A program made the translations under genes and the position numbers. A stretch of DNA of 28,550 nt from Bacilli bacterium (GTDB lineage Bacteria; Bacillota_I; Bacilli_A; RF39; UBA660): positions 1-28,550 of the forward strand of contig CAAHEL010000060.1 in assembly GCA_900772445.1 (NCBI GenBank). Direction: 5' to 3'. Positions 5,726-28,550 of the stretch are shown here, piece after piece (the stretch's first letter is position 1; each line of letters starts with the position of its first letter). The notes under the pieces are model-generated. The model did not search any database. It had not been told where the DNA came from and was given only the letters and a program-made list of their open reading frames with translations.

Positions 5726-6511
5726 ATGATAAAAAATATTATACAAGTAATGAAAAGGTATAGATTTCTATTAGAGCAATTAGTTCTTAGAGATTTTAAA
5801 GTAAAATATAAAAGAAGTTTTTTAGGGGTAGTTTGGAGTTTATTATATCCATTATTAATGATGGGAGTTATGGCGTTGATATTCTCTAATGTATTTAGAT
5901 TTAGTGTACCTGGAGTTAATTATTTGGTATATTTAATGACTGGGTTAGTTATGTTTAATTATTTTAGTGAGGCTTCAAATCTATCTATGGGTTCAGTAGT
6001 AGCAAACTTTGGTTTAATTAATAAGATATATATTCCTAAATATATTTTTCCATTATCAAAATGTTTATTTGTTGGTATTAATTTTTTACTTACTTTGATA
6101 CCTTTATATTTAATAATTTTTATAACAGGACAAGGTGTTAATATTTATCATTTATTATTACCATTTGCTTTTATTTGTTTATTTATTTTTACTATAGGTA
6201 TGGGATTTATTTTATCTACAATTACTGTATTTATGAGAGATATGTTTTATATATATGGAATTATTATAACAGTATGGACTTATTTTACTCCGATTATGTA
6301 TGATATTTCAATGATTGGTCCAAAATTACAATTTTTATTTAAACTAAATCCATTATATCAATATATAGATTTTGCTAGAACTATTATTTTATATGGTAAT
6401 TGTCCTAGTTTAACTAGTTTTATTGCTTGTTTAGGAAGTTCGTTATTATTCTTATTAATTGGTTTAGCTGCTTTTAGGAAAAATCAAGATAAATTTATTT
6501 ATTATGCATAG
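5726..6511 (+). CDS. tagG: ABC-2 type polysaccharide/teichoic acid export permease
   Basis: About 260-aa six-TM ABC-2 permease with the typical N-terminus LVLRDFKVKYKRSFLGVVWSLL, directly followed by the cognate ATPase. Confidence 0.85.
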   Translation: MIKNIIQVMKRYRFLLEQLVLRDFKVKYKRSFLGVVWSLLYPLLMMGVMALIFSNVFRFSVPGVNYLVYLMTGLVMFNYFSEASNLSMGSVVANFGLINKIYIPKYIFPLSKCLFVGINFLLTLIPLYLIIFITGQGVNIYHLLLPFAFICLFIFTIGMGFILSTITVFMRDMFYIYGIIITVWTYFTPIMYDISMIGPKLQFLFKLNPLYQYIDFARTIILYGNCPSLTSFIACLGSSLLFLLIGLAAFRKNQDKFIYYA

Positions 6512-6522
6512 GTGGTGAAATA

Positions 6523-7302
6523 ATGAAAAGAAATAGTTGTATAAAAGATGAAATAATGATAGATATAGAAAATGTTTCAATGAGATTTAATCTAGGTATT
6601 GAAAAGGGTTTTTCTTTCAAGCAATTCTTTGTAGATTTATTTAATCCTAAAAAAAGAAAAAAGAAAAAGAAAGAAGAATTTTATGCATTAAGTGATGTTG
6701 ATATAAAAGTTAAAAGTGGTGAAGTTATTGGACTTATTGGTAGTAATGGAGCAGGTAAATCAACACTTTTAAAAATAGTAGCAGGAGTTATGAAACCTAC
6801 CAAAGGTAGTGTAAAAGTAATGGGAAATGTTTGCCCTATGATTGAACTTGGAGCAGGTTTTGATATGGAACTTACTGCTAGAGAAAATATTTATTTAAAT
6901 GGTGCAATACTAGGATACTCTAAGGAATTTATTGAAAGTAAATTTGATGAAATAGTGGAGTTTTCTGAATTACAAGAATTTCTAGAAGTTCCTGTTAGAA
7001 ATTTTTCTTCAGGTATGATTGCTAGACTTGCTTTTTCAATTGCTACAATAGTTGACCCAGAAGTATTAATAGTAGATGAAATATTATCCGTGGGAGACTT
7101 GGCATTCCAACAAAAAAGTGAAGAAAAAATGCGTTCAATGATTGGGGGAGGTACTACTGTATTATATGTTTCACATTCGGTTGATTCAATTAAGAGTTTA
7201 TGTGATAGAGTAGTATGGTTAGAACATGGTAAAGTAGTTGAAATTGGTGATACTAAAAAGGTATGTGACCACTATATTGAAACTGTTGTAGGGGAGGAAT
7301 AA
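6523..7302 (+). CDS. tagH: Polysaccharide/teichoic acid export ABC transporter ATP-binding protein
   Basis: Walker A GSNGAGKST, signature FSSGM, Walker B LIVDE, H-loop SH. Paired with the ABC-2 permease. Confidence 0.88.
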   Translation: MKRNSCIKDEIMIDIENVSMRFNLGIEKGFSFKQFFVDLFNPKKRKKKKKEEFYALSDVDIKVKSGEVIGLIGSNGAGKSTLLKIVAGVMKPTKGSVKVMGNVCPMIELGAGFDMELTARENIYLNGAILGYSKEFIESKFDEIVEFSELQEFLEVPVRNFSSGMIARLAFSIATIVDPEVLIVDEILSVGDLAFQQKSEEKMRSMIGGGTTVLYVSHSVDSIKSLCDRVVWLEHGKVVEIGDTKKVCDHYIETVVGEE

Positions 7303-7304
7303 GT

Positions 7305-8327
7305 ATGAAATTATTAACTGTAATAGTTCCTGTATATAATACAGAAAAATATATTAAAAGATGTTTAGATTCACTAGATAATGAAGAAGTAAATGATTTA
7401 TTAGAAGTCTTAATAGTTAGTGATGGAAGTAAAGATAATGCTATAAATATTGCTAAGGAATATGAAAAGAGATTACCAGATACATTTAAAATAATTGAAA
7501 AAGAAAATGGCGGACATGGTTCAACAATTAATAAAGGATTAGAACTTGCTACTGGTAAATATTTTAGAGTATTAGATAGTGATGACTGGGTAGATAATAA
7601 TGATTTTGTTACTTTTGTTAAGAAATTAAAGGAATTAGATGTAGATTTAGTAGTAACAGATTATAGAAAAGAATTTGTTTATGAAGGAAAAAGTGAAAAA
7701 TTAGTTTATAAGGATTTGGAACCTAATAAGAAATATGATTTTGATACTTTTGATTTAAAACTATTAAATGGTGAATACTTTGTTATGGCAACTTCAACAT
7801 ATAAAACTGAAGTTCTTAGAAAGAGTAATTTAAAATTAATGGAAAAAACATTCTATGTAGATATGCAATATAATGTTGTACCAATACCTATGGTTAATGA
7901 TTTTATTTATTTAGATTTAGATATTTATAGATACTTTATTGGTAGAGTAGAACAAAGTGTAAATACATCATCATTTGTAAAAAATCATAAAAATCATGAT
8001 AAAGTAGTTAAATATTTAATTGAATATTATACTAATTTAAAAAATATTAGTGATGTAAAAAGAGAATATATAAAAATAATTATTAAATATATATTATTTA
8101 CTCATTATTCAATATATTGTATTTATTTTAAACATAAAAAAGAAGGATATAAACTAGTAAAAGAATTTGATAAATATTTATATGATACAAATAAGGAATT
8201 ATATGAAGTTAGTGATGTTTCTTTTATTAAGGTATATAGAAAATTGAAGTTTACTCCGACTTTATTAGTAATAAACAAAATGAAAAATACTTTAGTTAAA
8301 TTTGGAAAGAGAATGATGTCTAGATGA
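7305..8327 (+). CDS. Family 2 glycosyltransferase
   Basis: LTVIVPVYNTEKYIKRCLDSL, VSDGSKDN and the DxD-type LDSDDW motif. Confidence 0.85.
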   Translation: MKLLTVIVPVYNTEKYIKRCLDSLDNEEVNDLLEVLIVSDGSKDNAINIAKEYEKRLPDTFKIIEKENGGHGSTINKGLELATGKYFRVLDSDDWVDNNDFVTFVKKLKELDVDLVVTDYRKEFVYEGKSEKLVYKDLEPNKKYDFDTFDLKLLNGEYFVMATSTYKTEVLRKSNLKLMEKTFYVDMQYNVVPIPMVNDFIYLDLDIYRYFIGRVEQSVNTSSFVKNHKNHDKVVKYLIEYYTNLKNISDVKREYIKIIIKYILFTHYSIYCIYFKHKKEGYKLVKEFDKYLYDTNKELYEVSDVSFIKVYRKLKFTPTLLVINKMKNTLVKFGKRMMSR

Positions 8328-9547
8328 AAAAAATATTAGTTATTACTTGGTTTTATCCACCAGTTAATTCTTCGGAAGGATTAGTTACATATAAGCTTTT
8401 AAATAATTCTAAATACGAATATGATGTTTTTACTCAAAAGAATTCTGCTTCTTGGAGTTACGGAAATAAAGAAACATTAGAAAATAAAGATAATGTTAAT
8501 TCTATATTTGCTAAATCTAATAATTTAAAAGATTGGAAAAAGGAAGCAATTGAATACTTTAAAAATAATAAAGATAAATATGATATAGTTATGACTAGGT
8601 CTATGCCTCCAGAATCACACGAAGTAGGATTAAAAATAAAGAAAATTAAACCTAGTATTAAATGGATAGCATCTTTTGGAGATCCAATTGCTAATAATCC
8701 TTATGTTAATTTGAGTAAAAAAATGGATAATACAAGATTACTTATTAGAATTAAAAGATTACCTAAGAATATTGCAAGAAATCTAGTTAGAAAATGTATT
8801 ACAGAAAATCCAATTCAAGATAAAACTATTAAGAATTCTGATATGATTATTTTTAATTCAGAAGAACAAAAGAAATATATGTTAGGAAATAAATATAAAG
8901 ATAAGAATAGTATTGTTTTAGCACATTCTTATGATGAAAAGTTATATCCTAATAAAGTAAAAAAATATGAAGATAAAATACATATTACTTATATAGGTCA
9001 TTTAGATAGAATAAGAACACCAAGAATATTTTTAGAAGCAATAAAAGAATTAAAAAATGAAGATGAAGAATTATTCAAGAAACTTGAGGTTGATTTTTAT
9101 GGTAATTTATGTAGTGATGATAAATTATATATATTTGATAACTATTTGTATGATATAGTAAAATATAAGAAACAAGTATCATACTTAGAAAGTTTAAAAA
9201 TAATGAAAGAAACTAATTTCTTATTACATATAGATGCTAATTTAAGTTTAGTTAATAATGAAAATATCTTTTTTGCAGCAAAGCTTGCTGATTATATTGG
9301 TAGTGGTACTCCGATTATTAGTATTACTATGTTAGATGGGGCAAGTGCTAATATATTAAGAAATATAAATGCTTTAGTTTTAACTTATAGTAAATCAGAT
9401 ATTAAGAATTATTTAAGAAAAATAGTTTATAATAATTATAAATTCGAATTAAATAAAGAAACATCTTTGGAATATAGTTCTAAAGAAGTAGCAAAGAAAT
9501 TTGATAATATGGTTTCTTCAGAATTAGGAGTAAAAAATGAAAACTAA
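8324..9547 (+). CDS. GT-B fold (GT4/GT1-like) glycosyltransferase, specificity unknown
   Basis: The KILVITWFYPP N-terminus and YIGHLDRIRTP...EAIKEL / KLADYIGSGTPII patterns are typical of GT-B enzymes. Its ATGA start overlaps the upstream stop. Confidence 0.5.
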   Translation: MKKILVITWFYPPVNSSEGLVTYKLLNNSKYEYDVFTQKNSASWSYGNKETLENKDNVNSIFAKSNNLKDWKKEAIEYFKNNKDKYDIVMTRSMPPESHEVGLKIKKIKPSIKWIASFGDPIANNPYVNLSKKMDNTRLLIRIKRLPKNIARNLVRKCITENPIQDKTIKNSDMIIFNSEEQKKYMLGNKYKDKNSIVLAHSYDEKLYPNKVKKYEDKIHITYIGHLDRIRTPRIFLEAIKELKNEDEELFKKLEVDFYGNLCSDDKLYIFDNYLYDIVKYKKQVSYLESLKIMKETNFLLHIDANLSLVNNENIFFAAKLADYIGSGTPIISITMLDGASANILRNINALVLTYSKSDIKNYLRKIVYNNYKFELNKETSLEYSSKEVAKKFDNMVSSELGVKNEN

Positions 9548-10796
9548 ATATTTAATAATTGGTGGTGGTATCTCAGGATTAACACTAGCAAACTATGTTG
9601 ATGATTATTTAATAATTGAGAAAGAAAATGAAGTTGGTGGATATTGTAAAACAATTAAAAAAGGAGATTATATTTGGGATTATGCAGGACATTTCTTTCA
9701 TTTTAAAACTGAAGAATTTAAAACTAAATTTTTAGATGTTATTCCTAAAGAAGATATAATCTATCAAGATAAATGTACTAAAATATTATATAAAAATAAG
9801 TTAATAGATTATCCTTTTCAAACTAATATTCACGAACTAGATAAAGAGGAATTTATTGATTGTTTGTATGATTTATTTACTAAAGAAGAAAAAGATAATT
9901 ATGATAATTTTTTAGATATGTTATATGGTAAATTTGGTAAAAGTATTGTAGAAAAGTTTTTAAAACCATATAATGAAAAGTTATATGCAATTGATTTAAC
10001 AAAACTAGATGTTGATGCAATGGGAAGATTTTTCCCTTATGCTGATAAAGAAGCAATTATTAGAAATATGAAAGAAAGTAATAATAGTTCTTATAATAAT
10101 AGTTTCTTATATCCAAAAAATGGTGCTGGTTCATTTATTAAAGTATTAAGTGATAATTTAGATAAGAATAAAATATTATTAAATACAGAGGTAAAAAGTA
10201 TTGATATAGAAAATAAAAAAGTAACTTTATCTAGCGGGAAAGAAATTAATTATGAATATTTAATTAATACTATATCTTTACCTAAATTTATAAAGTTAAC
10301 TAATAAAAATCTAGAACTTGCTAATTCGTTATCTTATAATAAAGTTTTAGTATTTAATCTAGGATTTAATAAAAAATCTAATTTAACTAAAGAACATTGG
10401 TTATATATTCCTAGTAAAGAATGTAATTACTATAGAATAGGATTTTATGATAATATCTTAAATCAAGATAAACTTAGTATGTATGTTGAAATAGGATATG
10501 GTAAAGATGATATAATTAGTGAAGAAGAAATAAAAAGACAATTAGATTTAACTATTAATAATTTATTAGAACAAGGTATTATAGATAAAGATACTAGATT
10601 ATGTGATTATGTTTCTATAGTTATGGATCCGGCATATGTACACATTAATAGTGTTACAGATAAAGAAGTAAAAAAATACTTTAAAGATATGGAAAAATAT
10701 AATGTATATAGTATTGGTAGATATGGTGGTTGGACTTATTGTTCTATGGAAGACTGTATGTTAGAGGCGAAGAATTTATCAGAAAAAATAAACTAA
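9537..10796 (+). CDS. FAD-dependent oxidoreductase, UDP-galactopyranose mutase-like
   Basis: The N-terminal dinucleotide fold YLIIGGGISGLTLA, then EVGGYCKT...WDYAGHFFH, resembles the Glf/amine-oxidase pattern. It sits inside a glycan cluster next to galE. Confidence 0.5.
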   Translation: MKTKYLIIGGGISGLTLANYVDDYLIIEKENEVGGYCKTIKKGDYIWDYAGHFFHFKTEEFKTKFLDVIPKEDIIYQDKCTKILYKNKLIDYPFQTNIHELDKEEFIDCLYDLFTKEEKDNYDNFLDMLYGKFGKSIVEKFLKPYNEKLYAIDLTKLDVDAMGRFFPYADKEAIIRNMKESNNSSYNNSFLYPKNGAGSFIKVLSDNLDKNKILLNTEVKSIDIENKKVTLSSGKEINYEYLINTISLPKFIKLTNKNLELANSLSYNKVLVFNLGFNKKSNLTKEHWLYIPSKECNYYRIGFYDNILNQDKLSMYVEIGYGKDDIISEEEIKRQLDLTINNLLEQGIIDKDTRLCDYVSIVMDPAYVHINSVTDKEVKKYFKDMEKYNVYSIGRYGGWTYCSMEDCMLEAKNLSEKIN

Positions 10797-10826
10797 AAAC
10801 TTTAAAAAGAAAAAGAGTTGAGTGTT

Positions 10827-11549
10827 ATGGAAAAATATTATAAGGTAATGTATAAAGATAGTGCAAATAGTTTTTATAATCTATTAGAAGACTATCTAGT
10901 TAATAATAAAAAAGAATTTATTGTTACTGCTAATCCTGAAACTTTTATGAAATCTTTAGAAGACAAAGAAGTTACTAAATTATTATCTGATAAAAATACT
11001 CTTTTAGTACCAGATGGAATTGGTATAGTAAAGTCTTCAAAAATGTTAGGATATGATATTACTGAAAGAATTACTGGTATTGATATTGCTTATGAATTAT
11101 TAAAATTAGGTAATAAATATCATAAAAAAATCTATTTATTTGGTTCAATGCAAAAAGTAATAGATATGATGTTAGAGGTATTAAAAAAAGATTATCCTAA
11201 TTTAGTAATAGTTGGTAGTTCTAATGGATATGTTAATGACAAAGATAAAGTCTTTGATGAAATATCTAAATTAAAACCTGATATTGTTTTAGTAGCACTT
11301 GGTATTCCTTTACAAGAAAAGTTAATATATAAACATTTAAATAAATTTGATAAAGGTATTTTTGTTGGAGTAGGTGGTTCTTTTGATGTAATTAGTGGTT
11401 ATAAAAAAAGAGCGCCTAAGATATTTATTAAATTAAATTTAGAATGGTTATATAGAATAATAAAAGAACCAAAAAGAATTAAAAGATTTTTTGAATCTAA
11501 TGTTAAATTTATGATTTATAATTATAAATTAAGAAAATCTAGGAGGTAG
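10827..11549 (+). CDS. tagA: WecB/TagA/CpsF family glycosyltransferase (N-acetylmannosaminyltransferase-like)
   Basis: About 240 aa with TANPE, LVPDGIGIV, ALGIPLQE and GVGGSFD motifs. The track start at 10818 is a TTG, so the ATG at 10827 is preferred. Confidence 0.85.
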   Translation: MEKYYKVMYKDSANSFYNLLEDYLVNNKKEFIVTANPETFMKSLEDKEVTKLLSDKNTLLVPDGIGIVKSSKMLGYDITERITGIDIAYELLKLGNKYHKKIYLFGSMQKVIDMMLEVLKKDYPNLVIVGSSNGYVNDKDKVFDEISKLKPDIVLVALGIPLQEKLIYKHLNKFDKGIFVGVGGSFDVISGYKKRAPKIFIKLNLEWLYRIIKEPKRIKRFFESNVKFMIYNYKLRKSRR

Positions 11550-11552
11550 TAA

Positions 11553-12653
11553 ATGATTAAAGTAATGACTGTTTTTGGTACTAGACCAGAAGCAATAAAG
11601 ATGGCACCTTTAGTAAAAGAATTAGAAAGTAGAAAAGAAATAAAAAGTATTGTTTGTGTTACAGCACAACATAGAGAAATGTTAGACCAAGTTTTAGAAG
11701 TTTTTGATATAAAACCAGATTATGATTTAAATATTATGAAACCAGGTCAAACCTTATCTGAAATAACTAGTAGAGTATTAATGGGATTAGAAGAAGTAAT
11801 AAAGAAAGAAGAACCAAATGTTATTTTAGTTCACGGAGATACTACTACTACATTTGCTGGAGCACTTGCAGCATTTTATAATAAAGTAGATATAGGTCAC
11901 GTTGAAGCAGGTCTTAGAACATATAATAAATATTCGCCATTTCCTGAAGAAATGAATAGACAAATGGTTGATAGAGTAACTGATATGTTTTTTGCTCCAA
12001 CGGAAGTATCAAAAAATAATTTACTTATTGAAAATATTAATGAAGATAAAATCTATATAACAGGTAATACTGCCATTGATGCAATGAAATATACTGTAAA
12101 AGAAGATTATAACAATGAAATATTTGATTATATTGGTAATGATAGAATGATATTACTAACCGCTCATAGAAGAGAAAATTTAGGAGAACCTATGTATAAT
12201 ATCTTTAGGGCAGTAAAAAGATTAGTGGAAGATATTCCTAATATTAAAGTAATTTATCCAATTCATTTAAATCCTAATATAAGAAAAATAGCAGATGAAG
12301 TAATAGGACATAATGATAGAATAAAAATAATTGAACCTCTTGAAGTAGTAGATTTTCATAATTTTATAAATAAAAGTTATATAATTTTAACTGATAGTGG
12401 TGGAATTCAAGAAGAAGCACCATCACTTGGTAAACCAGTTTTAGTTTTAAGAGATACTACTGAAAGGCCAGAAGGAATAACTGCAGGAACATTAAAACTA
12501 GTAGGAACAAATGAAGAAGAAATATATAATAATGCTAAAATATTATTAGAAAATGAAACAGAATATAATAAAATGAGTCACGCTTGTAATCCATATGGTG
12601 ATGGTACAGCAAGTAAGCAAATAGTAGATGCAATAATTGAAAAATATAGGTAG
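11553..12653 (+). CDS. mnaA: UDP-N-acetylglucosamine 2-epimerase (non-hydrolysing)
   Basis: FGTRPEAIKMAP, HVEAGLRT, HRREN and DSGGIQEEAPSLGKPVLVLRDTTERPE. Confidence 0.93.
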   Translation: MIKVMTVFGTRPEAIKMAPLVKELESRKEIKSIVCVTAQHREMLDQVLEVFDIKPDYDLNIMKPGQTLSEITSRVLMGLEEVIKKEEPNVILVHGDTTTTFAGALAAFYNKVDIGHVEAGLRTYNKYSPFPEEMNRQMVDRVTDMFFAPTEVSKNNLLIENINEDKIYITGNTAIDAMKYTVKEDYNNEIFDYIGNDRMILLTAHRRENLGEPMYNIFRAVKRLVEDIPNIKVIYPIHLNPNIRKIADEVIGHNDRIKIIEPLEVVDFHNFINKSYIILTDSGGIQEEAPSLGKPVLVLRDTTERPEGITAGTLKLVGTNEEEIYNNAKILLENETEYNKMSHACNPYGDGTASKQIVDAIIEKYR

Positions 12654-12661
12654 GTGTAAGA

Positions 12662-13663
12662 ATGAAAATATTAGTAACAGGTGGAACTGGATTTATTGGT
12701 AGTCATACGGTAGTAGAATTATTAAATAGTGGCTATGAAGTAATAGTAATTGATAATTTATCTAATTCTAAAATAGATGTTGTAGATAAAATAAAGAAAA
12801 TAACTAATAAGAATTTTGACTTTTATGAAGAAGATGTTTGTAATAAAGAAGCATTAGAAAAGATATTTAAAGAAAATAAAATAGATGCAGTAATACATTT
12901 TGCAGGATATAAAGCAGTTGGAGAATCTGTAGAAAAACCATTAATGTATTATAGAAATAATCTAGATAGTACATTTAGTTTATGTGAAGTAATGAGTAAA
13001 TATGGTTGTAAGAATTTTGTCTTTTCTTCATCTGCGACAGTATATGGTACACCAAAAAGTTTACCAATTAAAGAAGATTTTCCTATTGGAGACACTACTA
13101 ATCCATATGGAACTAGTAAAGTAATGAATGAAAGAATATTAACAGATATTTATAATTCAGATAATTCTTGGAATATTGCTTTACTTAGATATTTTAATCC
13201 AATTGGAGCACATAAAAGTGGTTTAATTGGAGAAAATCCTAACGATATTCCAAATAATTTAATGCCTTACATTGTTAAAGTAGCAACTGGAGAATTACCA
13301 ATTTTAAATATATTTGGTGATGATTATGATACAATTGATGGAACTGGAGTAAGAGATTATATTCATGTTGTTGATTTAGCAAAAGGACATATTAAAGCAA
13401 TTGAATGGGTACTTAAAGGTAATGGAATAGATGCTTTTAATCTAGGAACTGGTAATGGATATAGTGTACTTGAACTGGTTAATGCTTTTAAAAAATACAA
13501 TAATGTAGATGTTCCATATAAAATAGTAGGAAGAAGAAGTGGAGATATTGCTTCTTGTTATGCTGATGTTAGTTATGCTAAAAAAGTTTTAGGCTGGGAA
13601 AGTGTTTATGGTATTAAAGATATGGTAATAGATGCTTATAATTTTGTAAAAAATAACAAGTAG
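12662..13663 (+). CDS. galE: UDP-glucose 4-epimerase
   Basis: GGTGFIGSH Rossmann motif, the SSSATVYG and YGTSK (YxxxK) catalytic motifs, and RDYIHVVDLA. Confidence 0.92.
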   Translation: MKILVTGGTGFIGSHTVVELLNSGYEVIVIDNLSNSKIDVVDKIKKITNKNFDFYEEDVCNKEALEKIFKENKIDAVIHFAGYKAVGESVEKPLMYYRNNLDSTFSLCEVMSKYGCKNFVFSSSATVYGTPKSLPIKEDFPIGDTTNPYGTSKVMNERILTDIYNSDNSWNIALLRYFNPIGAHKSGLIGENPNDIPNNLMPYIVKVATGELPILNIFGDDYDTIDGTGVRDYIHVVDLAKGHIKAIEWVLKGNGIDAFNLGTGNGYSVLELVNAFKKYNNVDVPYKIVGRRSGDIASCYADVSYAKKVLGWESVYGIKDMVIDAYNFVKNNK

Positions 13664-13681
13664 TATTGAAAAATAAATAAA

Positions 13682-13712
13682 ACTATTATATAATTTATAT
13701 AGTAGTTTTTTT
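13682..13712 (+). terminator. Intrinsic terminator after galE
   Basis: A 10-bp stem (13682-13691 pairs with 13697-13706, one G-U) with a 5-nt loop, followed by T6. Confidence 0.55.
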
Positions 13713-13723
13713 GAGGTGAAATT

Positions 13724-14761
13724 ATGGGGATTAAGGAAATTTTATTAATGGTTGGAGTAACTTTCTTATTTACGGTATTTTTTATTCCAGTAGTAAAGAA
13801 AATTGCTAATCATATTGGAGCATTAGATATTCCAAATGAAAGAAAAGTACATAAGGTACCAATTCCAAGATTAGGTGGTTTAGGAATATATGCTGGTTTC
13901 TTATTAGGTTATATGTTATTTTGTAATGAATCGTTGCAAATGAATTCAATACTTATTGGTAGTTTTATTATAATTATAACTGGTATAATTGATGATATTA
14001 AACCAATACCTGCGAAATATAAATTTTTAGGTCAAGTTGCTGGGGCAGCAGTAATACCATTATATGGTGGTATTATTCTAAAAGATATTAGTGCTTTTGG
14101 ATTAAATATTGATTTTGGTTTTTTAAGTATTCCAGTAACTATTCTATTTATAGTATCAATAATTAATTGTATTAATTTAATTGATGGATTAGATGGACTT
14201 GCTGGAGGGCTTGCTTCGATATATTTTTTAACAATTGGAATAATAGCAATGATGCTTAATAATTCAAATGGATTAGATATAGTTTTAACATTTATAATGT
14301 TAGGTTCTACACTAGGTTTCTTATGGCATAATTTTAATCCAGCATCAATATTTATGGGAGACTCTGGTAGTATGTTTTTAGGATATATTATATCAGTAAT
14401 TGCTTTATTAGGTTTTAAAAATGTAACATTAACATCATTTATTGTTCCAATGTTATTGCTTGCTATTCCGATATTAGATACATTCTTTGCTATATTAAGA
14501 AGAATTATTAATCATAAACCTATAACTATGCCAGATAAAAATCATTTACATCATCAATTACTTAGAATGAAGTTTTCGCAAAGAAAAACAGTATTAATTA
14601 TATATATGGTTGATATATTATTTGCAATAGCATCAATTATATATGTTCTAGGAGATAGTCTTCAAGGAATAATTGTTTATGTAATATTACTTATTATTAC
14701 TTTAATATTTATATTTAAAACCAATATTATTTGGGATAGAACTAAGAAGAATAAGAATTAA
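13724..14761 (+). CDS. tagO: Undecaprenyl-phosphate GlcNAc-1-phosphate transferase (WecA/TagO, MraY-like GT4 family)
   Basis: Polytopic membrane protein with the NLIDGLDGLA and FMGDSGS motifs. Its context includes tagA and mnaA. Confidence 0.88.
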   Translation: MGIKEILLMVGVTFLFTVFFIPVVKKIANHIGALDIPNERKVHKVPIPRLGGLGIYAGFLLGYMLFCNESLQMNSILIGSFIIIITGIIDDIKPIPAKYKFLGQVAGAAVIPLYGGIILKDISAFGLNIDFGFLSIPVTILFIVSIINCINLIDGLDGLAGGLASIYFLTIGIIAMMLNNSNGLDIVLTFIMLGSTLGFLWHNFNPASIFMGDSGSMFLGYIISVIALLGFKNVTLTSFIVPMLLLAIPILDTFFAILRRIINHKPITMPDKNHLHHQLLRMKFSQRKTVLIIYMVDILFAIASIIYVLGDSLQGIIVYVILLIITLIFIFKTNIIWDRTKKNKN

Positions 14762-14773
14762 TTATTCTTTTTT
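14747..14773 (+). terminator. Terminator-like hairpin at the end of tagO
   Basis: AAGAATAA (14747-14754) pairs with TTATTCTT (14762-14769) around a 7-nt loop that holds the tagO stop codon, followed by a T-run. Confidence 0.45.
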
Positions 14774-14792
14774 CTATTTTTATCTAAGAGTA

Positions 14793-14801
14793 TGATATAA
14801 T
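14793..14801 (+). promoter_or_regulatory. Extended -10 promoter element upstream of the three-gene ATPase module
   Basis: TGaTATAAT (TG 14793-14794, TATAAT 14796-14801) lies downstream of the tagO hairpin. There is no good -35 box, which is typical of extended -10 promoters. Confidence 0.45.
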
Positions 14802-14834
14802 ATAATTATATTAGAAATAATAATGAGGTGCGAA

Positions 14835-16694
14835 ATGAATAATAGTGTTAGATTAACCCTTCCCACTATGAAGGATATATTTGGAACAGATGATTACAAT
14901 ACAGGTCAATTAAGAGTAATAGCAAAATATGGGGTAGCAAGCAATGTAACAGATTTAGCTTTGTTAAGTGGTGCAGATCCATATGTGTATAAAGGAAATA
15001 TTTATGAAGGAGCATATTTTACTAAGTCACAAGAAAGTGTTGGTATGGGTTATCTCTTAGTTTGTGAAGGTGGTTGGTGTGGTATTAATGGAAATAGTTA
15101 TACTAGAGATAAATGTATTAGACCAGTTATTGAAATGCCTTCAAATTATATAGAATTATGTAAAAATAGTAGATTTAATGATAAAGATGTTAGGGAAGTA
15201 GATTTTGGTGAATATCCACAAAATGCTCCTCCAAAAGATATACAAGAAATGCTTGAAGAAAAATATAGAAAAGGTGAATTTAAATTAACTGGAGCTAGTT
15301 ATACTTTTAATAGATTTGATAATACTGTGGTACATAATTCTCCTTTTGAACCTGTTAAATATAATGAGTATGAATATAATGGTAAAAAATATATTAGAAC
15401 AACTGTGGAGTCAAATTACATTGTTTTAAATAATGGTGAATGTCTTCGTGATGCAAAGGGAAGTTATGTTTGGATTGAAGTATCACCAGTTACTTGGTTG
15501 ATTGATACAGAAGAACATAAGTTAATTTCTAAATATTGTTTACTTTCAGGAATTAGATTTGATAAAGAAGATTTATATGATGGAGATTTTTCTAAAACAG
15601 AAATGTATGATTATTTAGAAAAATATATGTCAAAAGAAATGATGCAAGGTACTTTAAAAACATATGTTAGTAGTAAACCTAAAACTGTTAATTCATATGG
15701 ATTTAATTTTGAAAAAGTAAGTGAAGAAGATATAATAAGAGGTTCTGTTGAAAGTGGAATAGCGGTATTTTTACATGGTCCATCTTCTGAAGGCAAAAGT
15801 GCTAGAGTAAAACAAATTGATCCGGATTGTGAAATAATTTATCTTCGCAATGCTACACCAGATAGTTTAAATGGAAAAAGTGTATATAACACCGAAACAG
15901 GGGAAATGATTGATGTTCCTCCGACTTGGTTAAAAAAATTAAAAGAAAAGTGTGAACGAGAACCAGATAAACTACATATTTTGTTCTTTGATGAAATAAC
16001 TAATGCTCTTCCAAGTATCCAAGGTATAGCATTTAATATAGTTTTAGATAGAGAAGTAAATGGTATTTGGAAATTACCAGATAATGCTAGAATTGTTGCG
16101 GCAGGTAATGATATGAAAGATTCACTTGCAGCCAACGAACTTGCTGAACCTTTATTTAATAGGTTTGCTCATGTTTATATAAAAACAACTACTGAAAGTT
16201 GGTTAAAATGGGCAAGTGAAAATAATATACATCCTGCGATTTATGCTTATATTGCTTATACTAGAGGTGAAGCGTTAAGAAGTAAATATGATGGTGAAAA
16301 GCCAAATGCTGATCCAAGAAAATGGGAAATGGCATCAAAAATGCTATATAAAACAAATAATCCGGAAATGTTAAGAGCATTAATAGGTGAAGACTTGACG
16401 GAAGAATTTATTCATTTTTGTAAATGTTCTGTAATAACTTTAGATGATGTAATAAATGATAGTTATAGTGAAAGTGATTTAACTATGTTAAATACTGCAG
16501 AAAGATATTCAACAATAATGGGATTATCTGGAGTAGATGAAGAAAACTTTGGAAAAGTTAGGGATTTTGTTTGTAAATTAGGACCAGAATTTGTATCAAC
16601 GTTTGATAGTTTATGGTGTCGTAATGATGAACACAGGTTAGAAATAGTGGCAGAATATAGACTTACTGAAAATAAAGGAGTTGGAAGACGATAA
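14835..16694 (+). CDS. AAA+ ATPase (AAA_5 / MoxR-like core) with an uncharacterised N-terminal region of about 300 aa
   Basis: Walker A GPSSEGKS (15777-15800), Walker B ILFFDE (DE at 15990-15995), sensor-1 VAAGN (N at 16107-16109), arginine in LFNRF (16161-16163) and a helical lid with PRKWEMAS. Start moved from 14823 to the ATG at 14835, which follows GAGGTG. Confidence 0.8.
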   Translation: MNNSVRLTLPTMKDIFGTDDYNTGQLRVIAKYGVASNVTDLALLSGADPYVYKGNIYEGAYFTKSQESVGMGYLLVCEGGWCGINGNSYTRDKCIRPVIEMPSNYIELCKNSRFNDKDVREVDFGEYPQNAPPKDIQEMLEEKYRKGEFKLTGASYTFNRFDNTVVHNSPFEPVKYNEYEYNGKKYIRTTVESNYIVLNNGECLRDAKGSYVWIEVSPVTWLIDTEEHKLISKYCLLSGIRFDKEDLYDGDFSKTEMYDYLEKYMSKEMMQGTLKTYVSSKPKTVNSYGFNFEKVSEEDIIRGSVESGIAVFLHGPSSEGKSARVKQIDPDCEIIYLRNATPDSLNGKSVYNTETGEMIDVPPTWLKKLKEKCEREPDKLHILFFDEITNALPSIQGIAFNIVLDREVNGIWKLPDNARIVAAGNDMKDSLAANELAEPLFNRFAHVYIKTTTESWLKWASENNIHPAIYAYIAYTRGEALRSKYDGEKPNADPRKWEMASKMLYKTNNPEMLRALIGEDLTEEFIHFCKCSVITLDDVINDSYSESDLTMLNTAERYSTIMGLSGVDEENFGKVRDFVCKLGPEFVSTFDSLWCRNDEHRLEIVAEYRLTENKGVGRR

Positions 16695-17083
16695 TGGATA
16701 GAAAAGAGTTATTACTTACTTATATTGAAAATAATGTTGTGCCAATACTTGTAGATTTTATATCAGGTAGTGATTTAGGTAATGCTATAATTTTACCAGC
16801 AAGTATTTCTAAAAGTGAATTAAACGGACATTATGAAGGAAAAGATTTTTTACCTCCGAAATGGTATCAAGAACTTACTTTTGAAAAAAATAGTAAAATA
16901 TTAGTTATAGATAAAATAGATTCTGTATCTAAAGAAGAACAAACAAAGTTTATAGAATTATTAGAATATAGAAAAATATCTACTTTTATACTTCCTAAAA
17001 ATTGTGTAATTATTGTTACAGCAAATGAGATTAATAAAGATAAAATTAATGAAGAATTATTCTCTTTAGTAGCAAGAATATGA
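16694..17083 (+). CDS. Degenerate, catalytically dead AAA+ core paralogue (pseudo-ATPase), 129 aa
   Basis: It aligns by eye, block by block, with the core of the upstream ATPase, but every catalytic motif is ruined. GPSSEGKS becomes SGSDLGNA, FFDE becomes VIDK and NRF becomes SLV, while VAAGN/VTAN is retained. Its start overlaps the upstream stop (TAATG). Confidence 0.7.
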   Translation: MDRKELLLTYIENNVVPILVDFISGSDLGNAIILPASISKSELNGHYEGKDFLPPKWYQELTFEKNSKILVIDKIDSVSKEEQTKFIELLEYRKISTFILPKNCVIIVTANEINKDKINEELFSLVARI

Positions 17084-17090
17084 GGTAATT

Positions 17091-18248
17091 ATGTATGATA
17101 TTGATTCGTTAAAAAGAAAAATGTTAATTAAATATCCATTCTTTGGTAGTACAATTACTAATGTAGAATATCAAGAACTATTAGATATAGATACTGCTGC
17201 AACTGATGGAAATAAAATATATTATAATCCTGAATTTTTAGGTGGATTAACTATTGAAGAACAAATATTTATACTAGCTCATGAAGTTTGTCATATTGCT
17301 TTTAATCATATATCAAGAAGAAAAGATAAAGATAAAAATTTATGGAATATTGCTACTGATGCTGTAATTAATCAGTTATTAAAAAAAGATGGATTAAAGA
17401 TGTTAGATGGTTTGATAGATATTCCAGAAGCAATTGATTATGATGCTGAAACATATTATGAAAAATTATTGCAAGAACAAAAAGAAAATCCTGATTTTGA
17501 TAGAAAAGCAGGTAATGATTCTCATGAAATGTGGGAAAATACTGACATAAAAGAAATTGGTAAAACAGATACTTTGGAAAAAGAAGATGATATTAGTGAA
17601 AAAGATGCTTTCAAAAAAAATAGGGAATTAAAAAAGAAGCAATTAGAAGATTTAAAAAGATCTTTAATAAAGGATACTGTTACTAGTAATGAATTTAATA
17701 TGAGTAATGTAGGTGGTGCTAGTTCTTTAATTGATTGGAGATATATTTTAAAAGAAACTATTAATTATGATGTTGACTGGTCTTACAAAAATGCTACTAT
17801 AGAAAATGGAGTAATAACTGCTAATTTGGAAGATAAAGCATTACCAGTAACGGAGATACTTTTAGATACTAGTGGTTCAATAAATGAGGATTTATTAAGG
17901 ACATTTTTAAGAGAATGTAAAAATATTTTAAAGCATTCTAAAGTTTTAGTAGGGTGTTTTGATACAATTTTTTATGGCTTTAAAGAATTAAGAACAGAGC
18001 AAGATATAGATAATATGAGATTTGTTGGTGGTGGAGGAACCAATTTTGATGTTGCAGTAAATGCTTTTTCAAGAAGAAGTGAAAATAAAATTATTTTTAC
18101 AGATGGTGAAGCAAGAATGCCTATAACTCCTGTTAATGCTGTATGGATAGTTTTTGGTAACAGGAAAATTAATCCAAAGGGTGGAAAAGTAATCTATATT
18201 AATGAAGAATTATATAACAATATGAATGTGGTTAATAAAAAAAGATAA
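17091..18248 (+). CDS. Putative metallopeptidase (HExxH, DUF2201_N-like) fused to a vWA-like domain
   Basis: KYPFFG...AATDG...LAHEVCHIAFNH...WNIATDAVINQ (HEVCH at 17280-17294). The C-terminal part has the MIDAS-like LLDTSGS (17865-17879), GGGGTNF and IFTDGEA. A GAGGT RBS overlaps the upstream stop codon. Confidence 0.8.
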   Translation: MYDIDSLKRKMLIKYPFFGSTITNVEYQELLDIDTAATDGNKIYYNPEFLGGLTIEEQIFILAHEVCHIAFNHISRRKDKDKNLWNIATDAVINQLLKKDGLKMLDGLIDIPEAIDYDAETYYEKLLQEQKENPDFDRKAGNDSHEMWENTDIKEIGKTDTLEKEDDISEKDAFKKNRELKKKQLEDLKRSLIKDTVTSNEFNMSNVGGASSLIDWRYILKETINYDVDWSYKNATIENGVITANLEDKALPVTEILLDTSGSINEDLLRTFLRECKNILKHSKVLVGCFDTIFYGFKELRTEQDIDNMRFVGGGGTNFDVAVNAFSRRSENKIIFTDGEARMPITPVNAVWIVFGNRKINPKGGKVIYINEELYNNMNVVNKKR

Positions 18249-18267
18249 GTTACTAGAAATAGTAACT
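18248..18267. terminator. Hairpin exactly between the convergent stops of the vWA gene and gpsA
   Basis: AGTTACTA (18248-18255), GAAA loop, TAGTAACT (18260-18267). The flanking U-tracts are short. Confidence 0.5.
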
Positions 18268-18268
18268 T

Positions 18269-19649: not shown

Positions 19650-20177
19650 ATGAGAAAAAAATTGAATAATAAAGGTTTTACTTTAATTGAATTACTTGCT
19701 ACTATTGTTATACTTGGAATAGTATCTACGGTGGTGGTGGTATCTGTAACAGGGTATTTAAATAATAGTAAGAAAACGACTGAAAATGCATTTATTATGC
19801 AACTTGAAGATTCTATCGAAGGTTATGTTTCTTTATATGCTAGTAAAGACTTGAAGTTTTCTTTATATGATGAGAGTAATAAGTATCAAAAGTGTTATAA
19901 AGAAGGTAATAGTAATAAATGTTATGATGTTGTTATTTATAAGGGAATGGTATCTGGTACAAATAATATACCTACATTAAGTGTACTAAAAAGTAAAAAT
20001 ATTATTAATAATGAATTAGTTAATCCAATAAATAAAAAGAGTTGTGATATAGATAATACTTCTTTAGAAATATATAGGGATTCTGATTATGTTTATTGTT
20101 TTAAGGTAAATACTATTAATTGTATAGATAAAACTAATGTTATTGATACTTGTTCTAGTTTATATATAGAAAGATAG
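19650..20177 (+). CDS. Type IV pilin / pseudopilin-like protein (prepilin-type N-terminal cleavage/methylation domain)
   Basis: Canonical class III signal peptide MRKKLNNKG/FTLIELLATIVILGIV with Glu at +5. AGAGGA RBS. Confidence 0.85.
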   Translation: MRKKLNNKGFTLIELLATIVILGIVSTVVVVSVTGYLNNSKKTTENAFIMQLEDSIEGYVSLYASKDLKFSLYDESNKYQKCYKEGNSNKCYDVVIYKGMVSGTNNIPTLSVLKSKNIINNELVNPINKKSCDIDNTSLEIYRDSDYVYCFKVNTINCIDKTNVIDTCSSLYIER

Positions 20178-20181
20178 GGAT

Positions 20182-20652
20182 ATGATGCAAAAGATAATTA
20201 AAATAACAAGTAGTTTATTATTAATTGATATACTTATAAAATTATTAGTAAAAAATAATATGTTAGTAAATGAAAGTATAAAAATAATTAATAACTTTTT
20301 TTATATTACTTATGTAAAAAATACTGGGGCAGCGTGGAGTATTTTAAGTGGGAAACAAACTTTTTTGATAATATTTAGTATTATAGTTATTGCTTTAATT
20401 ATTTTTTATTTAGTTAAGAAAAAGAGTTATTTAAATTTAGAGGTTATTGGTTATAGTTTACTTTTATCTGGGGCACTTGGTAATTTAATTGATAGAATAC
20501 TTTATGGATATGTTATAGATTATTTTAGTTTTTATATATTTAGTTATAGTTTTCCTATATTTAATTTTGCAGACTCTTGCATTGTTATAGGAATTGTGTT
20601 ATTATTTATAAGTTCGTGGAGGGATAGTAATGTTATTCGAAGTAGAAAATGA
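20182..20652 (+). CDS. lspA: Lipoprotein signal peptidase II
   Basis: Four-TM protein with NTGAAWS and FNFAD motifs. It is followed by rluD, as in other Bacillota. Confidence 0.9.
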   Translation: MMQKIIKITSSLLLIDILIKLLVKNNMLVNESIKIINNFFYITYVKNTGAAWSILSGKQTFLIIFSIIVIALIIFYLVKKKSYLNLEVIGYSLLLSGALGNLIDRILYGYVIDYFSFYIFSYSFPIFNFADSCIVIGIVLLFISSWRDSNVIRSRK

Positions 20653-26118: not shown

Positions 26119-26143
26119 TAATTTAAGATAAGGTATGGTGAAT

Positions 26144-27893
26144 ATGAATAATAAAGGTTTTGCAATAACAGGAATATTGTATGGATTAATGATTTTATTT
26201 GTTATAGTAATTACATCTTTTTTAGCAGTAGTGGTAGGTAAAAGTAAAAGAGATAATGAAGTATTAAATAATGTTAAAGAAAGTTTATCACTTAATTCTT
26301 CAGAAACAGTTTATTGGTCTAAATTTAATTATGCTAATTATGGTTGGACTTACAATGGTTATAGATATAGTTATGTAACTGATAGAAGAGCTTTATATAC
26401 TTTTGAAAATGCTGATTATAATACTTGTGTTAGTATGTATTTGCCAAAGGGTACAGTAGTTATTATAGATTCAGAGGGAAGGTTATCTTATTCGTTATAT
26501 GGTAGTGAAAATGAGGCTGAATTTAAAGAGATGAGTGATAGTTGTTATGGTGAATTGTATAATAAACCAAATAGTCCAGATTTAGTTGATGGACTAATTC
26601 CAGTAGTATATAATGAAACAACTAGTAAATGGGTAAAAGCAGACTCTACAAACGAAAATAATTCTTGGTATAATTATGATGAAAATAAATGGGCGAATGC
26701 TGTACTTGTAACTAGTGTTAATAGAAATGTATATCAAAATGCGAAGCCTGGTGAAGAAATATTAGATAATGATATTTTAGCATTTTATGTCTGGATACCA
26801 AGATATAAATATAAGGTATGGAATATAAATAAAGTTATTGGAACAGACTCATATAATGCACAAACAACGGGAATAGATATAAAATTTGAAAATGGAATAG
26901 ATACAACAGGTACGATAGTATGTAATGATTATAGTTATAGAGCTCCATCATCAACTGCAGGTAGTCCAAATGAAAATTGTACTGGGGGAAATGGAGATTA
27001 TTATACACATCCAGCATTTACTTTTGGAGATAATGAAGTAAGAGGATTTTGGATAGGAAAATATGAATTATCAAGTGAAACGCCAACAGCAACAAATGGA
27101 GGTGGAAGTTCCACAACATTAACAGCAAGAATACTTCCAAATGTTAATTCTTGGAGAAACAATAGCCTCTCAAACTTTAATACAGTAATTCAAAGTATGC
27201 AAACAACAAATAATATATACGGATTAGGGGCAGATAAATCAAATACAGATTCACATATGTTAACCAATATGGAGTGGGGAGCAGTAGCGTATTTAACGCA
27301 CTCTGCTTTTGGAAGATGTTATGGAACAAATTGTACTGAAGTAACAATAAATAATTGCTCTACTTATGTAACAGGTATTGGAGCAGATACAGTAAGTGCA
27401 AGTTCTTCGTCAACGACTTGTACGACAGACGCAAATAAATATAATGGGGCAAAAGGTGTGCTTGCGTCATCAACAGGAAACGTGTATGGAGTATATGATA
27501 TGAGCGGAGGAGCTTGGGAATATGTAATGGGAAATACGTCAAGCACAGCAGACTCTTATACATTTTCTCCATCTACTTCAGGATTTGCAAGTAGTTGGTA
27601 TTCTAATTATAGTAATCAAAAATATGTAAATACTTATGCAAATGATTCAGCAAGCAGCAACCAAACAGCATATAATAGAGCAAGACTAGGAGATGCAACG
27701 GGTGAAGTGGTATCGTCAAGTGGTTATGCTTGGTACAATGATTCAGCGTACTTCCCTTATTCCAGCGTTTCCTGGTTCGTACGCGGTGGGGTTTACGGCA
27801 GTGGTTCTGGTGCGGGCGTATTCTTCTTCAGCTACTACTTTGGCTCTGCCAACAGTGGCTACTCTGCCCGCGCTACTTTAGTATCTTTAAAAT

Positions 27894-27895
<2 letters not shown>
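26144..27895 (+). CDS. Large modular pilin-like protein: class III (prepilin-type) leader plus an FGE-sulfatase/SUMF1-like C-terminal module
   Basis: The MNNKG/FAITGILYGLMILFVIV leader resembles the pilin at 19650 but lacks Glu+5. Downstream are IPVVYN...WVKAD...WYNYDENKWANAV, WIPRYKYK, HPAFTFG...GFWIGKYELS, NMEWGAVAYL, GVYDMSGGAWEYVMG and WFVRGG...GYSARATLV. The alternative start is 26135. Confidence 0.65.

Positions 27896-28550
<655 letters not shown>

Follow-up and report, generated by a model that had tools for sequence, protein, structure and literature searches.

The question raised by the 28,550-nucleotide stretch of Bacilli bacterium contig CAAHEL010000060.1 (assembly GCA_900772445.1), which is called the window here and was analysed at its full length, is what might be done by three tightly packed genes that lie between tagO and gpsA. 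Gene 1 is predicted to encode a variable N-terminal recognition module (N-module) fused to a MoxR-class AAA+ ATPase, gene 2 an ATPase-core paralogue that has lost its P-loop, and gene 3 a zinc metallopeptidase joined to a vWA domain (Table 1). The trio may constitute a cytoplasmic sensor-motor-protease cassette of which the window holds a fixed-specificity copy, and the chances that this reading is right or wrong seem to us about equal. It is supported by the domain assignments, by the combination of a conserved engine with a variable sensor, by the hallmark of a diversity-generating retroelement (DGR) in relatives, by the accessory and mobile character of the cassette, by the conservation of the catalytic motifs, and by precedents in the literature.

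The division into engine and sensor is apparent along the gene 1 protein. Median identities of the window protein to 80 homologues are 86.5% for the AAA core, 70% for the lid, 44% for the N2 subdomain of the N-module (residues 115-270) and 26% for the N1 subdomain (residues 1-110), and are as low as 18.5% for residues 66-100, which are the equivalent of the variable repeat of retroelement-linked relatives. Likewise, paralogues in the array at locus L010 have AAA cores that are 97-100% identical and variable-repeat equivalents that are just 48-79% identical. Among 16 strain variants of the window species, whose gene 1 proteins are at least 93% identical, 38 of the 46 variable columns fall within the N-module and the ATPase is nearly invariant. 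The N-module as a whole was modelled by AlphaFold with a predicted local distance difference test score (pLDDT) of 84 and a predicted template modelling score of 0.86, the pLDDT of N2 being 90-98 over most of its length, and the variable-repeat equivalent appears in this model as a beta-hairpin with strands at residues 73-78 and 81-86. Sub-threshold Pfam matches to DUF6273 (E = 0.018) and Fib_succ_major (1.2e-5) were obtained for the N-module of relatives, and a precomputed PF19789 match exists for one homologue (P0003). Matches of the N1 profile to PQQ beta-propellers among PDB sequences were rejected as spurious, their summed scores being weak and each matching stretch insignificant.

When searched alone, the N-module yields 1360 cluster representatives at E <= 1e-3. 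Hundreds of its homologues are only 270-350 residues long and may be stand-alone recognition proteins or contig-end fragments; the former would resemble the short target genes of other retroelement loci. Other arrangements of the same domains are two N-modules ahead of the ATPase (P0006), an N-module followed by the ATPase and a second N-module (P0004 and P0054), and an N-module followed by two ATPase domains (P0010).

How such variability may arise is indicated by the relatives, which were surveyed in 75 loci from a scan of GTDB representative genomes, their genes being classed by open reading frame (ORF) calling and BLAST. An RVT_1 reverse transcriptase lies directly upstream of the ATPase gene in 14 genome loci and in a prophage locus (L084). 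It is preceded by a bAvd-like gene (PF22296 at 1.4e-5; the phrog annotation in L084 is "Avd protein of DGR"), and between the two lies a template repeat of 80-100 nt that matches residues ~70-108 of the ATPase. Template/variable repeat pairs were found in at least 10 related loci, and the mismatches between the two repeats fall on template adenines in L011 (12/12), L013 (10/10), L019 (12/12), L037 (10/10), L044 (14/14), L067 (11/12), L084 (11/14), L009 (9/11) and L056 (7/9), as do the substitutions in L047 (11/11, plus one 1-nt gap). This adenine-specific pattern is the signature of mutagenic retrohoming. The reverse transcriptase contains LGNQSSQ, which fits the motif typical of diversity-generating retroelement reverse transcriptases. 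At the 3' end of the variable repeat, reverse-transcriptase-linked loci have the GC-rich homing motif (initiation of mutagenic homing, IMH) GCTGTTCGCCCAGCTTTGCAATCT, which is also kept by many loci without such an enzyme within 8 kb; all five of the L010 paralogues that were scored are among them. Such loci could be remote targets or the products of recent losses. The cluster from which reverse transcriptases were counted (cluster 3) was formed by single linkage and also took in the C5 DNA methyltransferase of L019; a second ORF of this cluster in L009 and L047 may be a methyltransferase too, and such ORFs were left out of the count. At one locus (L030:7977-17439), four ATPase copies that are 99-100% identical, N-module included, are repeated in tandem with a period of 1967 bp and could represent a very recent amplification or an assembly artefact; a reverse transcriptase adjoins them, and its template repeat is no more than a degenerate match to the copies, with mismatches at 11 A, 4 G and 3 C.

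The C-terminal half of gene 1 is, as judged from its motifs and its model, a MoxR-class AAA+ ATPase of the phage N4 gp24 type. Walker A, Walker B, the sensor-1 asparagine and the arginine are all present and are invariant or nearly so in 60 homologues (Table 1), this half of the protein matches phrog_1297 (1e-47), and Foldseek matched its AlphaFold model (pLDDT 81) to NorQ (9qhg, E = 7e-8), CbbQ2 (6l1q) and the MoxR protein 2r44, with E values of 7e-8 to 8e-6 and a probability of 1.0. The vWA partner expected of a MoxR-class ATPase is encoded by the adjacent gene 3, so that the pairing of a MoxR-type ATPase with a peptidase-vWA protein, proposed in the first-pass annotation of this locus, is borne out. 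Of the profile assignments made there, those to the DUF2201 domains lie above the Pfam cut-off, but for AAA_5 the window protein reaches 15.2 bits, which is less than the gathering score of 22; AAA_5 is matched by 13 of 14 homologues, with E values no better than 1.1e-6.

Gene 3 is firmly predicted to be a DUF2201_N HExxH peptidase fused to a DUF2201 vWA domain. Its two domains score 109.3 bits (3.5e-31; cut-off 23.2) and 47.5 bits (2.5e-12; cut-off 26.4), respectively, and together with the HExxH motif they give the protein the make-up of the COG3864 type. Besides the zinc-binding motif and the metal ion-dependent adhesion site (MIDAS) listed in Table 1, the GGGGT and TDGE motifs downstream of DTSGS are conserved in 65 homologues. 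The protein also matches phrog_1314 (6.8e-66), and homologues are found in 481 phage records. The label "HNH endonuclease", which is attached to phrog_1314 and to RefSeq phage genes, was rejected as contradicted by the HExxH/DUF2201 assignment. The linker between the peptidase and the vWA domain varies widely in length among homologues (proteins of 385-761 residues) and is often rich in Q and N; many homologues carry at this point a long tandem-repeat insert rich in Q, N, S and G, which results in proteins of 440-761 residues (e.g., L019:10773-11029), and the linker of the window protein, at 385 residues in all, is short. No functional study of DUF2201 or COG3864 was found in the literature searched.

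Gene 2 appears to be a paralogue of the gene 1 ATPase core from which the P-loop has been lost. Residues 5-128 were aligned to the core by hhalign over 123 columns (probability 92.4%, E = 5e-7), and BLASTP agrees with this assignment. The gap in the alignment falls exactly at the Walker A loop, and the DE of Walker B is replaced by DK; because of these two changes, the protein, which also lacks the lid domain, is taken to be ATP-dead, in accordance with its earlier description as a dead AAA+ paralogue.

More than 3000 homologues of gene 1 exist, full-length relatives being 55-63% identical. Most of the 75 loci are from metagenome-assembled genomes of uncultured gut Bacilli, some of them labelled Tenericutes; named carriers are Clostridium sp. 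CAG:417 and CAG:609, Coprobacillus sp. CAG:605 and Candidatus Faecisoma, and a few loci are from Clostridia (e.g., Zhenpiania hominis and Lentihominibacter). The three genes travel together, as the first-pass annotation had supposed: all 75 loci have the N-module ATPase, 70 have the peptidase-vWA protein and 60 the small protein of the gene 2 type. Of these 60, nearly all show the order ATPase, small protein, peptidase-vWA, with stop and start codons that overlap or abut; L081 departs from this in spacing, and the fragment L049 does not have the usual gene order. A Clostridia-type form has no small protein (L065, L068-L071, L073-L075, L078 and L083); two bacteria with this two-gene form, Zhenpiania hominis BX12 (L071) and strain DFI.6.37 (L070), are in culture. 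In several Bacilli, arrays of 2-6 ATPase paralogues surround one or two copies of the small-protein and peptidase-vWA genes (L001, directly after rpoBC; L003/L004/L010; L022; L038; L040; L066). Clustering of neighbouring genes over the 75 loci revealed no conserved partner besides the retroelement genes, the flanks being otherwise unrelated.

The accessory nature of the trio, which had been described as an insertion between tagO and gpsA, is confirmed by genomes whose TagO is 76-84% identical to that of the window. These genomes have the same synteny (tagO, gpsA and/or DUF192, pilin, lspA, rluD and rhomboid genes) and no trio, and in one of them (L089) the stop codons of tagO and gpsA are 23 bp apart. 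Because the flanking synteny is kept where the trio is absent, the trio, its upstream region and the terminal hairpin can be defined as a 3.5 kb indel (~14780-18265). The window species is common, the exact gene 2 protein being present on 170 contigs, and the same context is found in Hadza gut assemblies. Among 2.9 million IMG/VR contigs, the N-module form occurs in just one (L084), in which Avd, the reverse transcriptase and the trio come after prophage genes for tail, holin and endolysin; a position after the lysis cassette is a typical site of accessory cargo.

Some of the loci have surroundings of their own. An island at L019:3420-7935 comprises a C5 DNA methyltransferase gene, two Xre-type helix-turn-helix genes, a gene for a 162-residue protein, a bAvd-like gene, a template repeat and a reverse transcriptase gene; L044 and L037 have similar content. 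A large serine recombinase gene lies downstream in L037 and L044, and a recombinase gene of the same cluster lies upstream in L026 and L066. The island of L019, L044 and L037 suggests an integrative mobile element. In L032 (CP091726, a complete Bacilli chromosome of 1.46 Mb) and L033, the ATPase and peptidase-vWA genes are split into several ORFs and are likely to be pseudogenes, which suggests that the cassette is dispensable and is decaying in some lineages; the peptidase-vWA gene of L003 is also split.

The cassette can be compared with four kinds of known system. The nearest in its core is the N4 gp24/gp25 pair, since gene 1 (ATPase half) and gene 3 match phrog_1297 and phrog_1314, respectively, and are co-directional, with gene 2 between them in the window. 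N4-like phages, jumbo phages and T4-like cyanophages have pairs of this type; in Enterobacter phage EcP1 and cyanophage S-TIM5, the gene for the ATPase lies next to that for the peptidase-vWA protein, in the same order, and the two are annotated as similar to N4 gp24 and gp25. The 14 core genes of N4-like phages include gp24 and gp25, gp24 having no known function and gp25 being annotated merely as a vWFA-domain protein (PMC4193335), and the MoxR and metallopeptidase-vWA pair of jumbo phages has been proposed by Iyer et al. to act in virion assembly and processing (PMC7824862). The phage ATPases, however, are ~330-350 residues long and lack the N-terminal recognition module, nothing like gene 2 accompanies the phage pairs, and these pairs are middle or replication-region genes of phages, whereas the cassette described here is cellular.

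The nearest in its variable sensor are the MoxR-vWA-VMAP systems (Kaur et al. 2020, PMC7159879; Dore et al. 2024, PMC10907252), in which DGR-diversified C-lectin domains are the proposed sensors of MoxR-vWA conflict systems. Both types of system have a MoxR-class ATPase, a vWA protein, a peptidase activity and a hypervariable ligand-binding domain that is rewritten by a retroelement at template adenines, both are predicted to be cytoplasmic, and for both a coupling of invader sensing to peptidase activation can be proposed. They differ in that the variable domain is at the C-terminus of the vWA protein in the VMAP systems and at the N-terminus of the ATPase here, and in that the peptidase is a trypsin- or caspase-like domain on the VMAP protein there and a DUF2201_N zincin fused to vWA here. 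VMAP itself is the third component of those systems, whereas the third gene of the present cassette encodes a dead ATPase paralogue of 129 residues and no further conserved neighbour was found in the 75 loci, no search with a dedicated VMAP model having been made. The VMAP systems are mostly from multicellular cyanobacteria, actinobacteria and Chromatiales, and the present cassettes are from small-genome gut Bacilli and some Clostridia.

In the organization of the retroelement, the cassette resembles the DUF6273 retroelement targets and the tentaclins of gut phages (PMC10743442; bioRxiv 10.1101/2024.10.15.618418). The variable repeat is near the 5' end of the target gene and corresponds to the terminal beta-hairpin of a small globular domain (PMC10743442), the order Avd, template repeat, reverse transcriptase is the same, and the weak DUF6273 matches in gene 1 relatives, which are below threshold, point in the same direction. 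Tentaclins, however, are receptor-binding proteins of virions with Ig-like domains, whereas here the variable domain is carried by a cytoplasmic ATPase and has no C-lectin fold confirmed by Foldseek. Finally, NorQ/NorD, CbbQ/CbbO and RavA/ViaA are related through the motor, NorQ and CbbQ2 being the best structural matches of the gene 1 ATPase, and through a partner whose vWA/MIDAS domain is joined by a linker to a second domain. In NorQ/NorD, a vWA finger enters the pore of the ATPase, and the linker of NorD is remodelled by the motor, which twists and stretches it (PMC13036017). A peptidase, a variable N-module and a dead paralogue, all present in the trio, are missing from these pairs, and the pairs are linked to defined client enzymes, none of which was found near the trio in the 75 loci.

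Because of the retroelement link, and following the published DGR C-lectin sensors of MoxR-vWA systems (PMC7159879, PMC10907252), a conflict role is the best-supported reading: the trio is probably a conflict system, and what it most likely recognises are variable targets, for example proteins of phages. In the mechanism proposed here, the N-module would bind a ligand, whose nature, to judge from the variability of the module, may be a protein of a phage or other invader. Binding would control assembly of the ATPase ring or turnover of ATP. The vWA domain of gene 3 would dock on the ring, by analogy with NorQ/NorD, and the motor would pull on the linker between peptidase and vWA, so that the HExxH peptidase might be unmasked, activated or positioned. 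The peptidase might then cut either the ligand that has been captured or some target in the host. The gene 2 protein, which is ATP-dead, could serve as a fixed stoichiometric adaptor or as a regulator of the ring.

Several results weigh against this proposal. Within the window itself, tblastn found no reverse transcriptase; there is no template repeat, repeats of the coding region for residues 1-140 being AT-rich chance matches alone; and the position of the homing motif reads AGAGATAAATGTATTAGACCAGTTATTGAAATG (GC content 0.27), the GC-rich motif being absent. The variation among the 16 strain variants is haplotype-like, is spread over the whole N-module and has no focus on the hairpin. Foldseek searches with the N-module against PDB and BFVD gave nothing with E below 0.1; because such a match is absent and the profile matches to PDB were spurious, the N-module is not classed as a C-lectin fold. 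The three proteins had no match in PADLOC-DB 2.0 at E up to 1, and no enrichment of defence genes was detected by PADLOC and Pfam among 120 immediate neighbours at loci L009-L064 (~50 loci), many of the cassette neighbours being housekeeping genes. The related phage pair is part of the core of N4-like phages and has a proposed role in virion assembly and processing (PMC4193335, PMC7824862). Defence, which the first-pass annotation had offered as one plausible role, is an inferred function, and no trace of retroelement targeting is seen in the window copy. The PADLOC matches among the 120 neighbours consist of reverse-transcriptase cross-hits and three to four to mad3/mad8 alone, and the neighbours are a mix of housekeeping, regulatory, and insertion sequence or integrase genes. 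The variable-repeat equivalent of the window has the GC content of the background (0.33), and no reverse transcriptase was called in the 22 kb surrounding the trio at a locus of the same species (L007). The window copy appears in all these respects to be a retroelement-free member of the family with fixed specificity.

The main rival to the sensor-motor-protease reading is a dedicated chaperone with a processing protease, used in the assembly or maturation of an endogenous or prophage-derived client, in which the N-module would bind the client, the MoxR ring and vWA would remodel it, and the peptidase would trim it. Such a role would accord with the homology of the core pair to N4 gp24/gp25 and to the pairs of jumbo phages and cyanophages, for which virion assembly or processing has been proposed (PMC7824862), with the fact that the characterised MoxR-vWA pairs (NorQD, CbbQO and RavA-ViaA) are maturation chaperones, and with the housekeeping genes that are often neighbours of the cassette. 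A fixed client, however, leaves unexplained why the binding hairpin should be hypermutated by a retroelement, why paralogues in arrays should differ mainly in this hairpin, and why the trio should be present or absent in sister genomes, and no co-conserved client gene lies beside the trio in the 75 loci; we regard this explanation as unlikely. Regulated proteolysis rather than immunity would be the task of the trio if it were a substrate-selective AAA+ protease similar to FtsH but built of separate parts, the N-module capturing cytoplasmic proteins, the ring unfolding them and the vWA-tethered zinc peptidase degrading them. An AAA+ ATPase, an HExxH peptidase and a recognition domain are indeed found together here, and their stoichiometry is tightly set by translational coupling, but MoxR-class ATPases are known as remodellers that act through vWA partners and not as processive unfoldases (PMC13036017), and the retroelement link and the accessory distribution suit housekeeping regulation poorly, which makes a protease of this kind seem decidedly improbable.

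It might also be supposed that the trio is the decaying cargo of a former mobile element and is functionless in the window genome, because it forms an indel between housekeeping genes, because the retroelement and the homing motif have been lost or were never present, and because some relatives are fragmented (L032, L033 and the split peptidase-vWA gene of L003). This is hard to reconcile with three intact ORFs in which all catalytic motifs are conserved and translational coupling is kept, and with the exact preservation of the gene 2 protein on the 170 contigs and the limited divergence of gene 1 in the 16 strain variants, and can be given very little credence. For the sensor-motor-protease reading, a wider version may be stated tentatively, as a possible though doubtful generalization: the family would be an undescribed intracellular immune or targeting machine, in which a MoxR-fused receptor directs a vWA-tethered zinc protease at the proteins that it recognises, and the receptor would be retargeted by a retroelement, by paralogue arrays or by fixed alleles. 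The scaffold of the receptor might be something other than a canonical C-lectin fold, and N4 gp24/gp25 would be the receptor-less ancestor or counterpart.

How much of this is new can be stated by comparison with what has been published. The theme of retroelement-diversified sensors with MoxR-vWA modules is known already (PMC7159879, PMC10907252). The combination of genes, which the first-pass annotation did not recognise as a described system, is not new in its core, since the ATPase and the peptidase-vWA protein correspond to the N4 gp24/gp25 pair, which has also been noted in jumbo phages (PMC4193335, PMC7824862). The novel N-terminal domain that was pointed out there has proved to be the key feature of the family; in relatives it carries the DGR variable repeat and so ties the family to the published theme. 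Undescribed in the literature searched are the fusion of a variable domain to the N-terminus of the ATPase itself, its peptidase-vWA partner of the N4 gp24/gp25 type, the P-loop-less paralogue, and the presence in small-genome gut Bacilli of cassettes that are fixed single copies, are arrays of paralogues or are linked to a retroelement.

The pair of a DUF2201 peptidase-vWA protein and a MoxR ATPase is widespread and uncharacterised, and the recognition domain attached to it here suggests how the pair might work. The host range of the theme, which was formerly tied to multicellular bacteria, is widened to small-genome, unicellular, uncultured gut Bacilli, in which several cassettes adjoin genes of prophages or genes for recombinases or methyltransferases. 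A natural comparison set is formed by the fixed alleles, the arrays of paralogues and the receptors diversified by retroelements, all of which are combined with one engine that hardly varies. If the proposal is true, a programmable protease coupled to recognition could have practical uses.

Table 1. Features of the three-gene cassette and its borders, in window coordinates.
Feature	Position	Strand	Remarks
AT-rich hairpin followed by T-run, directly 3' of the tagO stop	14744..14772	+	possible tagO terminator; just upstream of the left edge of the indel
TGaTATAAT, extended -10-like element	14793..14801	+	upstream of gene 1; read from sequence
Gene 1	14835..16694	+	619 aa; variable N-terminal recognition module fused to MoxR-class AAA+ ATPase (predicted), N4 gp24 / phrog_1297 type
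N1 subdomain, residues 1-110	14835..15164	+	most variable part of the protein; weak DUF6273 and Fib_succ_major similarity
Retroelement variable-repeat equivalent, residues 66-100	15030..15134	+	predicted beta-hairpin ending in conserved RP motif; no retroelement target in the window
N2 subdomain, residues 115-270	15177..15644	+	beta-rich; conserved GEYPQ and VWxEVxPxxWLxD motifs
Walker A GPSSEGKS, G315-S322	15777..15800	+	G315, G320, K321 and S322 invariant in 60 homologues
Walker B ILFFDE, I382-E387	15978..15995	+	E387 invariant, D386 at least 90% conserved (60 homologues)
Sensor-1 N425	16107-16109	+	invariant in 60 homologues
Arginine R443	16161-16163	+	invariant in 60 homologues
Gene 2	16694..17083	+	129 aa; putative AAA+ alpha/beta-core paralogue without P-loop and without lid domain
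Gene 3	17091..18248	+	385 aa; DUF2201_N zinc metallopeptidase + linker + DUF2201 vWA (predicted); N4 gp25 / phrog_1314 type
HEVCH zinc-binding/catalytic motif, H64-H68	17280..17294	+	conserved in 65 homologues
MIDAS motif DTSGS, D259-S263, vWA domain	17865..17879	+	conserved in 65 homologues
Hairpin, 9 bp stem, between convergent gene 3 and gpsA	18247..18268	.	likely bidirectional terminator; right edge of the indel

At the level of the locus, the description of the trio in the first-pass annotation as a self-contained, translationally coupled unit agrees with the sequence, in which TAATG at 16692-16696 unites the gene 1 stop with the gene 2 start, and gene 3 has a ribosome-binding site, GAGGT, that shares bases with the stop codon of gene 2 (17081-17083). 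Gene 1 could start at 14823 or 14835, and the start is better set at 14835, because it is preceded by a GAGGTG ribosome-binding site (14826-14831) and homologues begin at the same residue. Of the two hairpins that were thought to bracket the trio, the downstream one is well supported, with folding energies of -8.6 and -8.2 kcal/mol on the two strands (z = -4.1 and -4.3; equalled by 0/200 shuffles), but the upstream one is weak (-7.6 kcal/mol, z = -1.55), 13 of 200 shuffles folding equally well. The T-rich run ttcttttttctattt (~14765-14779), downstream of the upstream hairpin, is common to L089, a locus without the trio. The extended -10 element ascribed to the trio is present, but 50 promoter-like hexamers were found in the window against 50.2 expected from shuffled sequence; since their frequency in DNA with a GC content of 25%, that of the window, equals this expectation, a promoter of gene 1 is plausible but could be a chance occurrence. 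Scanning the window for Rfam families and tRNAs gave no matches. By inspection, no obvious signal peptide or transmembrane segment is present in the three translations, and the proteins are presumably cytoplasmic. Two antisense ORFs of 61 and 98 codons inside gene 1 (15611-15796 and 15839-16135, both on the minus strand) are most likely spurious, because they overlap its most conserved ATPase coding region.

The trio is preceded by a cluster of the wall-polysaccharide or teichoic-acid type (5726-14761), which contains an ABC-2 exporter pair and genes for a GT2 glycosyltransferase, an amine-oxidase-like protein, WecG, a UDP-GlcNAc 2-epimerase, a GalE-like epimerase and TagO, the identities being taken from Pfam calls on the same-species locus L007; the content of this cluster varies between sister genomes (L085 vs L089). 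On the other side, a type IV pilin-like gene with an N-terminal methylation motif (19650-20652) is directly upstream of lspA and rluD, an arrangement that is kept in all sister loci (L085-L089). Farther downstream, an ORF of 586 codons (26135-27895) is by length and position the counterpart of a DUF87/HerA-like ATPase gene in L087, and the GC content around it climbs from ~0.24 to 0.33-0.36 (profile from 26500 to 28500).

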